DNA of 64,000 bases from Candidatus Omnitrophota bacterium. GTDB lineage: Bacteria > Omnitrophota > Gorgyraeia > Zapsychrales > JBDRMG01. Below are positions 7,195-13,204 of the stretch, piece by piece. Position 1 is the stretch's first letter, and each line of letters begins with the position of its first letter. The notes under the pieces were generated by a model. The model was not told the origin of the DNA, did no database searches, and saw nothing but the letters and a program-made list of their open reading frames with translations. The position numbers and the translations under genes were made by a program. The DNA lies in contig JBDRMG010000018.1 in the NCBI GenBank assembly GCA_043812495.1, positions 7,651-71,650 of the forward strand, given 5' to 3'.

Positions 7195-8736
7195 TTAAAT
7201 TTTCGGAACCTTGCCGATCATATAAAAATCTTCCGGTTTGACCTTATCGAAATCTCCGCTTAAGACTCTTGCGCAGCCTGCAACGTTCTCTTCAATCGTG
7301 ACAAATTCTCCTTTTTTTCCGGTGAAAACCTCGCTCACGGTAAACGGCTGTGTCATGAAATTAAAAAGCTTCTGCGCCCGTCCGTAAATCAAGCGGTCTT
7401 CTTTATTCAACTCCTCAACACCGATAACAGCCACAATACGTTTGAGTGAATTGTATTTGTTAAAGTGAGAAATAACGCTTTGGGCCACATCAAAATGTCT
7501 GCGGCCGACAATCGTTGTATCCAAATTAGAACAAGAACTTAAGGTCGGATCAATAGCCGGATACATACCGCGCTGAACTAAATCGCGCGAAAGGACAACA
7601 ACGCCGTCCAGATAGCTAAAAATGGCCACGACCGCGGGATCTGTCATGTCATCGGCCGGAACATAAACAGCTTGAAGAGCGGTCACGGAGCCACCGCCTT
7701 CAATGGAACGGATTCTTTCCTGAACATAACTGACCTCGGAGGCCAGGGTGGGCTGATAACCCGTTTCCGCCGGAACACGTCCCAAAAGCGTAGACACTTC
7801 TTGGCCCCCTTGCACAAACCGAAACAAATTATCCATAAACAATAAAACGTCCTTGTTTCTCGATTGAATATATTCCGCAAGCGTAATGCCTGTGTTGACA
7901 ACTTCGGCGCGCGCCCCGGGCGGTTGATCCATTTGTCCGAAAGCCATCATAACTTTCCCAATCAAGTTATGCTCTGATAACTCGTGAAACAGCTCATTTC
8001 CTTCGCGGATGCGCTCACCAATACCGGTAAAAACACAAGCCCCGCTGTGCGCCTTGACAATATTGTTCATCAACTCCAAGATAACGACGGTCTTCCCGCA
8101 GCCGGCTCCTCCGAGAATCCCTGTCTTGCTTCCTTTGACAAGAGGAAAAAGCAGATCCAAATATTTCATGCCCGTCTCAAGCACCTCTGCCTTTTCACCC
8201 TTTTTTCTCTTCAGATCAAATCCCTGCTGCTTATTGAATTTCCGAATCGGGGTTGTCATCGGGGCATTGATATCCCCTCCTTTATCCAGGGGCCGACCGA
8301 CCGCATCCATAACCCGTCCAAAACATTCATCTCCGATGGGAATAGCAATAGGTAAAAATGTGTTGTAGCACTCGGAGTTGAGCTGCAAGTTTAACGTATC
8401 CATCAAGGAAACCGTCCGAACCACTTCTGTGCTTAAGTGCTCCGCGCATTGTAAGATAATCCTACGCTTGTCAAAGGTATAGGCTTCGATCACATCATAA
8501 AGAGCCGGAATATCCTCCAAGCTCTCAAAAAAAACATCAACGACAGGGCCTTGGCAAGAAACAATTCTCCCTTTTCCTTTGCGCTCTTGACCTGTTTGGC
8601 CAACAGGGCTTCCTTCAGCCTTCTTCACTGGCTGTTGACTATTATGATCGTTATCCGGCGGAATGTTGTCTTCGGGTCTTTTCGTATCCATTACTTTTAA
8701 AAAATCCTCCGCTAATGATATGCTGCTGAGTTCCAA
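7195..8736 (-). CDS. atpD: F-type ATPase beta subunit (divergent, N-terminally extended)
   Basis: P-loop [25 protein letters not shown]. Catalytic GER in [19 protein letters not shown]. Walker [18 protein letters not shown] in place of DELSEED. About 55 extra N-terminal residues and a short insert before the P-loop relative to canonical beta. Confidence 0.85.
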
Positions 8737-8754
8737 TAGAGTCTGAACAATTTA

Positions 8755-9606
8755 TTATCTCTTCGTCATCATTCTCGCTGTAAAGACTTCGCGCATACTT
8801 TTGTCAATATCGCCTTTTTTGGCCTTGCCAAAAGACATCTGAACACCTTTTTTTTGCTTCTGCATTTTCTGCAAGCTCGATTCTAATTGCTGAGACTGGG
8901 CCGCCGCTTCCGAGATGGCCGTATCATGCAGCATTTCGTAAATACGGCAGACAATCCACATATCGGCCAAGTAACCGATAATATCAACGGGATCAGACTC
9001 TTCAATCACCTTCTCGATGGTCTCCACAAAATCGGCTTGTTTGGTTAAGAGTTCCTCACAAGGAAGCAATTTGACAACGCGAGGTTTTTGTATCATAAAG
9101 TTCTTTGACCAGGGATAGACAACATTCGCTCGGCCGATTTTTCCGGTCATGATTTGTTCGATCAAATGATCCTTGATGTGGATGGCCGTCTCATAGAGCC
9201 CCGTTTCTTCAATATCTTCAAAAACCTTCATCTCGACACCCGGCCTTGCCATCTTAACGGCTCCTTTGCGCCCACAGGCAATCAAGAAAGAGTCTTTGTA
9301 TTTGCTTTGTTCGCTTAAGGCCGCACGGATAACGCGGCTATTCAGATCACCCATAAAGCCCGCTTCCGACGTGATCACCACGATTCCTGTAGCCGGATTG
9401 TCATTGGACACAAGCGGGTGCCTGACCCTTGAAAGACTGATCATGCGGAAAAATTCGACAAAAGACTCCCCAAAACGGGCAAAACGATCTTTTCGGTTGG
9501 CCAGCGTATGAAATTTATTGTCCGCAACGTCTTTAAGAACCTGGATGATTTGAAGCAACTCGATAATATCATCCAGATCGCCTTTAATTTTATTGGCTTT
9601 TCCCAT
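8755..9606 (-). CDS. atpG: F-type ATPase gamma subunit
   Basis: 283 aa. ...VVITSEAGFMGDLN... (the ITSDRGLCG equivalent). C-terminal helix ...REVFTARMM. Sits between the b/delta fusion and beta. Confidence 0.75.
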   Translation of the reverse strand: MGKANKIKGDLDDIIELLQIIQVLKDVADNKFHTLANRKDRFARFGESFVEFFRMISLSRVRHPLVSNDNPATGIVVITSEAGFMGDLNSRVIRAALSEQSKYKDSFLIACGRKGAVKMARPGVEMKVFEDIEETGLYETAIHIKDHLIEQIMTGKIGRANVVYPWSKNFMIQKPRVVKLLPCEELLTKQADFVETIEKVIEESDPVDIIGYLADMWIVCRIYEMLHDTAISEAAAQSQQLESSLQKMQKQKKGVQMSFGKAKKGDIDKSMREVFTARMMTKR

Positions 9607-11317: not shown

Positions 11318-11662
11318 GTTAAGGAAATATTATAATTGCATTTGCTTGATCCCCGCCCGCCATTGATTCAGTGGCGGGCGGGGTCAAACCCAGCGGGGAA
11401 TCCCCGCCTTTATTTAAGGCGGGGAGGAGAGCAAATACCAGCAACAAAGTTGCTGGTCAAGCTCTGCTTGAAAAACAATTTATCAAGTACCACGGCTGTG
11501 GGTATCTATTTCGGTCATGCACTTATGTTTCCGTCAATTCGATAAAATCGAATTGACGAGACCTCGCTAAATTTTGAGAAAATGTGCGGGCACTATCGTT
11601 CCATAAGCGCGGGCCTCATTGATTAGTAAGAGTTCTTGTTGAGTAGCCTTTCTTTGCAATCG
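11318..11662. repeat. Palindromic repeat cluster inside the atp gene array (family A)
   Basis: 345-bp non-coding gap between atpA and atpC. Contains AATATTATAATTGCATTTGCTTGATCC, hairpin ccccgcccgccattgattcagtggcgggcgggg, cggggaatccccg, and the perfect palindrome cgtcaattcgat-aaa-atcgaattgacg (also at 28243-28269). Confidence 0.7.
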
Positions 11663-13204
11663 TCAGCTCCCTTTCGCCGTTGTCGCCTTATCCAGCGCAT
11701 CCTCCCCCACGCCAACTTCCTCGGCTTCCTCTTCTTCATCCTTGGGTCTTTTAGCTTCCGCTTCTTTAATGTAGTCTTTAATCACGCTCTCGAAACCTTT
11801 GGTGATTTCATCGTCTATTTTTTTTCTTTCGCGCAGGATCTTCAATAGATCCGGATTCTTTTTCTGACAAAAGGGCGCAATTTCATTCTGAAAGGCCTTG
11901 ACCTCGTCAATCGTCAATTGCAACAGAAGTTTCTTAGTGTAGGCATAAAGAACAAAAGCCAGTGCCTCCAGGGAAACCGGGCTATCTTTGTCTTGCTTGA
12001 TGATTTCAGTTAAAATTTCGCCTGTCTTCATCTGTTGCTGGGCTTCTTCGGACTGTCCGGATGATTTTAATTTAGAAACCCGCAATAATTCCCTGAATTG
12101 GATATAATCCAAACGCAAAGAACCGGTGAATTTCTTGATGACAGGCCATTGGACTTTACTTCCGACGCGAGAAACGGAAAGACCGATATCCACGGCGGGC
12201 TTCTGCCCTTCTCCGAAAAGCGGCGTGCTTAACATGATTTGGCCATCGGTCATCGAAATAAGATTCGAGGAAATATATCCCGTCAAATCTCCTTCTAGAA
12301 TTTCGACAATAGGCAAAAATGTCATCGAACCTCCTCCATGGTCTTGGTCCAAGAAGGCGGCTCGCTCAATCATCTTCGAGTGCAAGTAAAAAATATCTCC
12401 CGGATAAGAGTCGCGGCCGGGCGGACGTCCCAATAATAGAGAAATTTCACGATAACACCAGGCATGTTTAGTAAAATCGTCAAAGCCGACAATCACATCT
12501 TTTCCCTGATTCATAAAATGCTCGCCGATAGAACAGGCCACGTAGGGAGCCAAGTATTGTTGTCCGGGCGGACAGGAAGCAGTGGCCGAAACAATGATCG
12601 TGTACCTAAAGCACTCGTGATCTTGGAATAGCTGTACAACCTTAGCTAAGGATGATCTTGATTTTCCGATGCAGCAATAGATACAAACAACATTTTTTCC
12701 CTTTTGATTCAGAATAGTATCTGTAATAATTGTTGTTTTCCCCGTCATTTTGTCGCCAAGAATGAGCTCTCTTTGACCATAACCAATAGGGATCATGGTA
12801 TCCAATACCTTAATCCCAGTCTCTAAAGTTTTACACAAAGGAACTCGGGCCAAAATAGGAGGGGCATTAATAAAAATAGGCGCCATTTTATCATGCTCAA
12901 GAGGCCCTAAGCCGTCAAGCGACTCCCCCAAAGGATTGACAATCCGCCCCAATAATTTGTCGCCAACGGGAACAAGAAACGGCTCCAGAGAAGCGACCGC
13001 CTTATCACCAGTCTTGATCTTCTCTGTCTCCTTAACGATCAGAACCTGGGCCTCGGTCTCGTCAAAACCAATGATGGTTCCTTCTGTCCCATATCCAAAT
13101 TTGATGAGCTGTCCGCTGATGCAGTGTTTAAAACCCGTCACCACAACGATACATCCGCGGATACACCGGACCCGTCCAATCTCTGTATAACGTAAATCTG
13201 CCAT
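11663..13204 (-). CDS. atpA: F-type ATPase alpha subunit (N-terminally truncated, Cys-rich variant)
   Basis: Aligns to canonical alpha from the beta-barrel onward. Walker A GDKMTGKTTIITDTILNQ. ...ATASCPPGQQYLAPYVACSIGEHF..., ...LLLGRPPGRDSYPGDIFYLHSKMIERAA, ...SVSRVGS. The ~30 N-terminal residues that normally bind delta are missing. RBS GGAGC 8 nt upstream of the ATG. Confidence 0.85.
   Translation of the reverse strand: MADLRYTEIGRVRCIRGCIVVVTGFKHCISGQLIKFGYGTEGTIIGFDETEAQVLIVKETEKIKTGDKAVASLEPFLVPVGDKLLGRIVNPLGESLDGLGPLEHDKMAPIFINAPPILARVPLCKTLETGIKVLDTMIPIGYGQRELILGDKMTGKTTIITDTILNQKGKNVVCIYCCIGKSRSSLAKVVQLFQDHECFRYTIIVSATASCPPGQQYLAPYVACSIGEHFMNQGKDVIVGFDDFTKHAWCYREISLLLGRPPGRDSYPGDIFYLHSKMIERAAFLDQDHGGGSMTFLPIVEILEGDLTGYISSNLISMTDGQIMLSTPLFGEGQKPAVDIGLSVSRVGSKVQWPVIKKFTGSLRLDYIQFRELLRVSKLKSSGQSEEAQQQMKTGEILTEIIKQDKDSPVSLEALAFVLYAYTKKLLLQLTIDEVKAFQNEIAPFCQKKNPDLLKILRERKKIDDEITKGFESVIKDYIKEAEAKRPKDEEEEAEEVGVGEDALDKATTAKGS

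Follow-up and report, generated by a model that had tools for sequence, protein, structure and literature searches.

The 64,000-nucleotide stretch of DNA analysed here (hereafter the window) comes from a Candidatus Omnitrophota bacterium of the order Zapsychrales (assembly GCA_043812495.1, contig JBDRMG010000018.1, forward-strand positions 7,651 to 71,650; coordinates below are those of the window). Open reading frame (ORF) calling and family searches revealed on its minus strand, from 13204 down to 7195, a module of F-type ATPase genes in the order alpha, epsilon, c, a frameshifted second c (c'), a b/delta fusion, gamma and beta. These genes form part of one long, co-oriented minus-strand locus for a type IV filament or secretion machine, and a gene for subunit a is missing from the module.

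Gene content of the ATPase module

Canonical atp operons follow the order a-c-b-delta-alpha-gamma-beta-epsilon. In the window, the module starts with an F1 alpha-like protein of 513 amino acids (aa) (11663-13204), which carries PF00006 and PF00306 and scores 517 bits against TIGR00962, and it ends with an F1 beta-like catalytic subunit, likewise of 513 aa (7195-8736; TIGR01039, 515 bits). Both proteins clear the cutoffs of these models; alpha also reaches 535 bits against NF009884, below the cutoff of 554. The remaining subunits are recognised by their Pfam families and score far under equivalog cutoffs, namely gamma (283 aa, 8755-9606; PF00231, E 3e-31), the epsilon-like protein (108 aa, 10991-11317; PF02823 over residues 8-81 and TIGR01216 over model positions 1-85 of 130), the b/delta fusion (247 aa, 9622-10365; PF00430 and PF00213, with TIGR03321 as the best NCBIfam model) and c (73 aa, 10733-10954; PF00137, 28 bits, E 2e-6), a two-helix hairpin with an RNP loop and a Glu57. 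The second c paralogue, c' (10469-10713), carries a +2 frameshift. The module is a diverged F-type set with a non-canonical gene order.

This gene set and order, as well as the frameshifted second c copy, had been proposed in an initial annotation of the sequence, and both are borne out by the ORFs and family matches. The choice between F-type and N-type, which that annotation had left to a profile comparison, fell to the former, since alpha and beta passed F-type models and N-type models failed. The intergenic distances deviate from its description. From the junction of a 455-aa protein with alpha onwards, the gaps measure 86, 345, 36, 19, 103, 15 and 18 bp, and a final one of 164 bp separates beta from the start of the MshE-type ATPase gene; the spacing of 15-25 bp given initially is true of just three junctions, the others ranging from 36 to 345 bp, and of two larger gaps reported there, the one of 345 bp is present and the one of 77 bp was not found. 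The 345-bp spacer between alpha and epsilon (11318-11662), where most relatives have 5-50 bp, contains GC-rich hairpins including a palindrome at 11351-11383, but no ORF with family similarity and no Rfam match other than sub-threshold noise.

Conserved linkage to filament genes

Is the embedding of the ATPase genes in a filament locus a common arrangement? We collected 52 related loci, 49 from a scan with one genome per GTDB species and three from a deeper subclade, called their ORFs and matched these to the window proteins. Gamma is 44-91% identical to that of the window among the 49 species loci; in the deep subclade, which was found with the most divergent gamma, it is 39-47% and alpha 56-57% identical. 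Every sufficiently long locus of the 49 has the same order, that is, a large protein, the 455-aa protein, alpha, epsilon, c, c', b/delta, gamma, beta, MshE and GspF, continued past GspF by (Peptidase_MA), GspG, two minor pseudopilins and GspK, and the intergenic gaps in related loci do not exceed about 310 bp. The deep subclade shows the same core with a single c, lacks c', Peptidase_MA, GspK and subunit a, and encodes upstream giant proteins of up to 8495 aa. The core unit is a giant protein, the 455-aa protein, alpha, epsilon, c, b/delta, gamma and beta together with a type IV filament machine. A pilus linkage that dissolves in related genomes had been named in the initial annotation as evidence for an ordinary ATP synthase; the adjacency is instead kept in all loci that are long enough, in two deep subclades.

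Loci of this class have already been published. Seymour et al. (2023, Nat Microbiol; PMC10066038) described, for all classes of the Omnitrophota, a 'symbiotic' F-type ATPase of non-respiratory character; on 57 of 66 contigs, its alpha clade is found no more than 10 kb away from type-4 pilus genes. The window agrees with these loci in phylum, in a non-respiratory-looking alpha, in the type IV filament genes and in giant ORFs, and its module is an instance of this published class.

Among 524 clusters of gamma homologues, those with a taxon name all belong to Omnitrophota/Omnitrophica, with the exception of one Bathyarchaeia cluster. The titles of the 49 species loci read Omnitrophota/Omnitrophica, 'uncultured Planctomycetales' or 'uncultured bacterium', and the title 'uncultured Planctomycetales bacterium' (L002, L004, L005, L008 and many others) is probably a taxonomic mislabel.

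Catalytic motifs are retained and stator domains are lost

Mean column identity in alignments of 40-47 orthologues is 0.76-0.77 for alpha, beta and gamma. The P-loop (GDKMTGKT) and the arginine finger (SVSRVG) of alpha are conserved in 40 orthologues, as are in 44 orthologues of beta the P-loop, the catalytic Glu and Arg and the Asp of the Walker B motif LLFMDN. This level of identity together with the invariant catalytic residues indicates purifying selection. Outside the conserved core, beta carries an N-terminal extension of about 55 aa, which is of low complexity, variable and missing in some species. By TIGR00962, TIGR01039 and these motifs, the catalytic alpha3beta3 head of a canonical F1Fo enzyme is present, and so are, as judged from sequence, the components of its rotor, gamma, epsilon and a c with carboxylate and polar loop, the ring itself being a prediction.

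The stator side is different. Alpha lacks the N-terminal helix of about 22 residues: model matches start at about position 23-25, PDB alignments start at residue 21-31, and all alpha orthologues begin at the same point as the alpha of the window. In ordinary enzymes, this helix binds delta. The b/delta fusion consists of one N-terminal transmembrane helix, a long helix and the C-terminal domain of delta (61 bits against TIGR03321, far under its cutoff of 224.7), and the N-domain of delta is mostly lost, since delta models match mainly with their C-terminal halves (NF004406, positions 113-184 of 186). A canonical peripheral stalk, composed of a b dimer and a full delta that binds the alpha N-helices, is not encoded by the module. 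The loss of the alpha N-helix and of the delta N-domain together argues for a remodelled stator rather than for decay. Epsilon, finally, is reduced to the beta-sandwich N-domain, and the inhibitory C-terminal helices are missing.

The c subunit and its paralogue

Glu57 in helix 2 and the loop R37-N38-P39 of c are invariant in an alignment of 12 species, across which c is 59-85% identical to the window sequence and is the best-conserved small protein of the module. In a wider set of 45 sequences, only one paralogue, in locus L040, lacks the Glu, which is kept in the deep subclade too. The outer helix (FVEAISI.AIL.IFQLFG) is near-invariant. In ordinary enzymes, the R-N-P loop docks gamma and epsilon.

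The second copy is unrecognised by Pfam alone. Helix 1 of c' is encoded by a 51-aa ORF (10713-10558), and helix 2 (…SKTPAIQMSILLQLIAVEGVSV…) lies in a different frame and extends to 10469; the frameshift stems from a CTCTCT run that has two bases more than in the three closest loci (L002-L004). When the profiles of c and c' were compared (hhalign), the probability was 97.9% and the E-value 4e-13, by which an AtpR/AtpI-like identity was ruled out. Judged by its profile, c' is a true c paralogue, which arose by a later duplication and is specific to the subclade of the window. The other loci that include the position have intact orthologues of 73-80 aa, apart from L040 and L048. The former (4496-5190) has three tandem c-like genes, none of which matches c' best and the middle one of which lacks the helix-2 Glu, while the latter (3590-6069) has lost epsilon and c' and retains a minimal set of alpha, c, b/delta, gamma and beta. 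In several species, c' has Q, M, G or D in place of the Glu. A programmed frameshift was rejected because the c' orthologues at the same position are in frame, and the frameshift in the window is either a real pseudogene of its lineage or an assembly error.

Absence of subunit a from the locus

We searched for subunit a as PF00119 in all window ORFs of at least 110 aa and found none, neither in the module nor in the rest of the 64-kb window. Likewise, none is encoded within 10 kb on either side of the module in the 52 related loci, and to this extent the absence of atpB from the locus, a central claim of the initial annotation, holds. A simple hydropathy scan detected no polytopic membrane protein in the window operon except GspF, and nothing further polytopic within the same distance in the related loci; the polytopic minus-strand ORFs of L001 and similar loci were dismissed as antisense artefacts of the giant repeat gene. 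A subunit a hidden in the gaps was rejected as well, the 345-bp spacer being non-coding by similarity and the remaining gaps too short. Lacking subunit a, the complex would be without a known ion path.

A subunit a encoded elsewhere in the genome, possibly together with AtpI, would turn the module into an ordinary, merely rearranged and ion-coupled ATP synthase with a functionless pilus linkage. The conserved carboxylate and RNP loop of c and the alpha and beta scores over the TIGR00962 and TIGR01039 cutoffs would fit such an enzyme, as would the KEGG annotation of an F-type ATPase in most Zapsychrales (PMC10066038), and our atpB search was confined to the window and the locus flanks. We nevertheless consider this explanation very unlikely. 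The embedding in the pilus operon is kept across two deep subclades with a subunit a in 0 of 52 loci, the alpha N-helix, the delta N-domain and the epsilon C-domain are lost, and gamma, epsilon, b/delta and c fall far under the equivalog cutoffs. At least one published genome, moreover, has the KEGG orthology (KO) entries for alpha and beta and none for subunit a. This genome, '221' in the source data of Seymour et al., also lacks those for b, c, delta and gamma and has V-type subunits too, whereas genome '58' of the same data has a full F-type KO set (PMC10066038). The closest named relatives, of the genus Aceula (gamma 75-76% identical to the window), are described with a V-type ATPase, and a 2026 preprint survey of complete genomes lists alpha/beta in 125 of 176 and a canonical gamma in only 30 of 176. 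The KO lists, the V-type enzyme of Aceula and this survey indirectly disfavour a subunit a supplied in trans as the general solution.

The surrounding filament and secretion locus

Directly upstream of alpha, a bitopic protein of 455 aa is encoded (13291-14658, minus strand, as are all genes of this locus). It comprises a signal or anchor helix, a beta-sandwich followed by a three-helix bundle, both present twice, a long helix and a C-terminal transmembrane helix (AlphaFold2 model, pLDDT 87.6), and it matches no Pfam family. All loci that extend as far as this gene encode an orthologue, which is 27-30% identical in the deep subclade, and the gene sometimes overlaps alpha. The 455-aa protein is probably part of the ATPase module.

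Could a protein of this locus stand in for subunit a? With a non-homologous substitute, for which the helix of the 455-aa protein, GspF or c' come into question, the module would be an ion-coupled machine that drives secretion or the pilus or pumps ions locally. That Glu57 is invariant and the outer helix of c nearly so suggests a protein partner at the ring surface, and the 455-aa protein, always adjacent and sometimes overlapping alpha in its gene, would be at hand. However, the R/K of this protein at the membrane edge is Y or W in some species, the transmembrane helix of b/delta is variable, c' has its Glu replaced in several species and is absent from the three single-c loci of the deep subclade, and a conserved, membrane-embedded arginine is found in none of the candidates examined (the 455-aa helix, the b/delta helix and c'; GspF was not among them). 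A substitute of this kind appears improbable to us.

Upstream of the 455-aa gene lies that of a secreted repeat protein of 1324 aa (14667-18641) with a signal peptide, Laminin_G_3, repeats and a conserved C-terminal region. The repeats comprise about 40 tandem copies of the 13-aa unit GINWxDIDVLSDx with a 39-nt period (15589-17041); a Pfam match to 'Ntox33' within them looks spurious. Its homologues are giant, with 7092 aa in L001 and 8495 aa in L051, and have the repeat and C-terminal regions in common. Further upstream (18666-25326), the locus encodes an AAA_22 protein (MshM/ExeA-like), a GspC-like protein, a secretin, a TPR protein and three unknown proteins of about 190 aa. Downstream of beta follow the assembly ATPase of the GspE/PilB/MshE type (4808-7030; PF00437 with E 4e-132, PF05157 and PF07238), the GspF platform (3576-4784), a Peptidase_MA_2 protein (2747-3556), the GspG-type major pseudopilin (2283-2771), two minor pseudopilins (1856-2407 and 1201-1809) and GspK (155-1204). 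The assignment to type II secretion or type IV filament systems is carried by PF00263, PF00437, PF00482, PF08334, PF07963, PF21687 and PF11356. Neither GspL/M nor PilM/N was seen in the window; they follow GspK in L001. The initial annotation had placed the module, co-oriented, between the TPR/secretin genes and the GspE/MshE ATPase. The latter border and the orientation are correct, but five genes intervene on the upstream side, those for the three proteins of about 190 aa, the 1324-aa repeat protein and the 455-aa protein.

The GspE/MshE ATPase contains two putative cyclic di-GMP-binding modules, an N-terminal MshEN and a C-terminal PilZ, which are kept in most related loci. The remaining window is of housekeeping character (glycine cleavage genes, the dcw/mur-fts cluster, truB, rbfA and ligA) and contains no further ATPase genes. 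The dcw cluster contains a second Peptidase_MA_2 gene (44273-45157, minus strand), flanked by a murC-like and a murG-like gene; in type, it is a paralogue of the one in the pilus operon. The palindrome in the alpha-epsilon spacer, a GC-rich and perfect one of 33 nt (CCCCGCCCGCCA…TGGCGGGCGGGG), recurs at 30733-30765 in another intergenic region. No such recurrence is expected by chance, the two sites share the palindrome and not the flanks, and it may be an element akin to repetitive extragenic palindromic (REP) sequences. The second copy adjoins the gene of a 140-aa protein (30788-31210, minus strand) with dockerin-type and EF-hand calcium-binding repeats.

Comparison with known ATPase families

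Family affinities were judged by bit scores against models and PDB entries, as a proxy for an alpha/beta phylogeny. Outside the clade, alpha comes closest in sequence to ordinary atpA proteins, with which it shares about 41% identity. Several of these closest relatives (P0315-P0318 and P0322) measure 563-772 aa and consist of an ordinary atpA part, which attains the full score, with 70-270 extra N-terminal residues; they may be delta-alpha fusions or gene-call artefacts. The module has homologues of the alpha, beta, gamma, b and c of canonical F1Fo enzymes and of the N-domain of their epsilon, and the motifs for catalysis and rotor docking are intact; the canonical enzymes differ in having subunit a, a full delta, the alpha N-helix, the epsilon C-domain and another gene order, and in not being embedded among pilus genes.

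Experimental precedent for a non-bioenergetic use of F1 comes from Mycoplasma, with the type 2 G1-ATPase of gliding and the type 3 F1-like X0 of the MIB-MIP system, and Seymour et al. group the Omnitrophota alpha with these type 2/3 enzymes (PMC10066038). They resemble the window module in F1-derived alpha, beta, gamma and epsilon, in the absence of subunit a and in a surface function, a presumed one in the case of the window. A further functional resemblance may lie in the large protein that Mycoplasma encodes just upstream of alpha (MMCAP2_0577 or MMOB1650), which has a signal peptide and is anchored in the membrane at its C-terminus; the 455-aa protein has this topology and position. Unlike the window, the seven-gene clusters of Mycoplasma lack b and c and encode a 12-transmembrane-helix protein as well as a small cytoplasmic one; the window has c, c' and b/delta and no such 12-transmembrane-helix protein, and it does not reproduce the seven-gene layout. 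The scores against the Mycoplasma models stay well under the cutoffs (398 of 600 bits for NF045863, 422 of 850 for NF045858, 300 of 520 for NF045936 and 382 of 570 for NF045934), and membership in these types was rejected. Indeed, the MMOB1660 model gives higher scores for ordinary alphas (411-468 bits) than for the alpha of the window (398 bits), and the beta of the Mycoplasma mobile G1-ATPase is the weakest F-type PDB match of the window beta, at 334 bits compared to 444 bits for an ordinary beta.

The N-ATPases (atpDCQRBEFAG) have a b of about 246 aa with a delta-like C-terminus that resembles the b/delta fusion in layout only. They differ in gene order, and the window lacks AtpQ, AtpR and subunit a; the models of this alternative type remain far under their cutoffs (495 of 750, 445 of 752, 61 of 225 and 17 of 100 bits), so that this family was rejected, too.

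The FliI and FliJ proteins are structurally related to F1 alpha-beta and gamma, and the initial annotation had drawn on FliI/FliH/FliJ of type III secretion systems (T3SS) as an analogy. It is a loose one, because the module is an alpha/beta heterohexamer with a c-ring. Membership was rejected, as the FliI/SctN models gave 125-194 bits against cutoffs of about 380-715 and alpha and beta are distinct paralogues. One could still imagine a non-rotary, FliI/FliJ-like export or unfolding ATPase which feeds the giant protein or the pseudopilins, with c and b/delta as membrane anchors, and indeed the module is always encoded beside a giant secreted protein and a secretion-type machine. The full rotor set, that is gamma, the epsilon N-domain and the docking loop of c, is conserved, however, and would be needless for an anchor; the operon already has a dedicated GspE/MshE ATPase, and the head is an alpha/beta heterohexamer rather than a homohexamer of the FliI type. 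We therefore hold a non-rotary exporter to be unlikely.

Discussion

Based on the gene content, the conserved residues and the conserved linkage, we propose, with a probability of about 0.6, that the diverged and functional-looking F-type ATPase is a built-in, ATP-hydrolysing rotary module of an Omnitrophota-specific type IV filament machine, similar to type II secretion systems and type IV pili. The full subunit set minus a, the invariant catalytic and c residues and the conserved gene order count for such a dedicated motor. That the module is a dedicated, non-bioenergetic accessory rather than a chemiosmotic synthase seems likely to us; that the rotation of the c-ring is its output we put at somewhat below even odds. 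The initial annotation had suggested, in case subunit a does not come from elsewhere, an ATP-driven rotary or assembly device co-opted by the filament apparatus, and its interpretation is supported in those parts that our data address.

The gene set is predicted to encode an alpha3beta3 head, a shaft of gamma and epsilon, a c ring (with c' in addition) and a single stalk of b and the C-domain of delta. We speculate that this complex runs as an ATP-hydrolysing motor, with which the loss of the inhibitory epsilon C-domain is in line, and that the rotor of gamma, epsilon and the c ring would turn against the stator. Instead of an ion gradient, partners in the secretion or pilus machine would receive the work inside the inner membrane; candidates are the GspF platform and the 455-aa bitopic protein, the gene of which always adjoins the module. 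The machine might in turn assemble, extrude or move a filament or the giant adhesin during attachment to host cells. In a stricter form, the F-type c-ring without subunit a would be a purely mechanical rotor or a conduit in the secretion or pilus machine, and its torque, transmitted via the 455-aa protein or GspF, would extrude, spin or retract the filament or the giant adhesin; this form we regard as doubtful.

Several points weigh against the proposed rotary module. The strict conservation of the c carboxylate and the very high conservation of the outer helix are what one would expect of a ring that meets an ion-channel partner, and a purely mechanical rotor would not obviously need the carboxylate; this conservation, the main difficulty of the proposal, points to a ring that is still in contact with another protein. 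Furthermore, the 455-aa protein gave no informative structural match, and the proposed link between ATPase and pilus relies on gene linkage and sequence. The atpB search was confined to the window and the locus flanks. Finally, KEGG assigns an 'F-type ATPase' to 37 of 39 Zapsychrales species in the data of Seymour et al. (PMC10066038), so that some relatives may also own an ordinary enzyme with a subunit a.

Since the locus class was published in 2023, the module itself is not a discovery. In its accessible parts, the study of Seymour et al. treats the alpha/beta phylogeny and the co-location with pilus genes only and contains no mention of subunit a, a c-ring, b/delta, c' or the 455-aa protein; it speaks of a 'type 4a' pilus, where Pfam recognises GspG, GspK, GspC and GspF types in the window (PMC10066038). 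Our literature search on the subunit composition of the Omnitrophota module returned nothing beyond this study. Within these sources as far as accessible, we did not find described that a c-ring and a b/delta stalk are kept without subunit a, that a 455-aa protein is linked to them, or that a special affinity to the Mycoplasma type 2/3 enzymes is lacking. The present analysis adds the subunit anatomy with the joint loss of the alpha N-helix and the delta N-domain, the 455-aa companion that all sufficiently long loci encode, the subclade-specific c' and evidence against a specific Mycoplasma affinity.

For bioenergetics, an F1 head, a c ring and a stalk under strong selection without subunit a represent a natural experiment. 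Unless a subunit a is provided in trans, this would be a reuse of the rotary F-type design for mechanical work in a diderm membrane, beyond the c-less motors of Mycoplasma. Should the c-ring indeed act as a mechanical rotor, the module would be the first membrane-embedded F-type motor with a torque output to another machine instead of an ion gradient, and it would provide a living counterpart of the 'protein translocase to rotary ATPase' scenario, an evolutionary scheme that reportedly goes back to Mulkidjanian, Makarova, Galperin and Koonin. For annotation, 'F0F1 ATP synthase' calls by KEGG or PGAP in such genomes should not be taken as evidence for chemiosmotic ATP synthesis. The Omnitrophota are widespread, ultra-small and probably predatory or parasitic bacteria, and the combination of a giant surface protein, a pilus or secretion apparatus and a private F-type motor ranks among their most conserved lineage-specific gene sets, which makes it a prime candidate for a host-attachment or attack machine.

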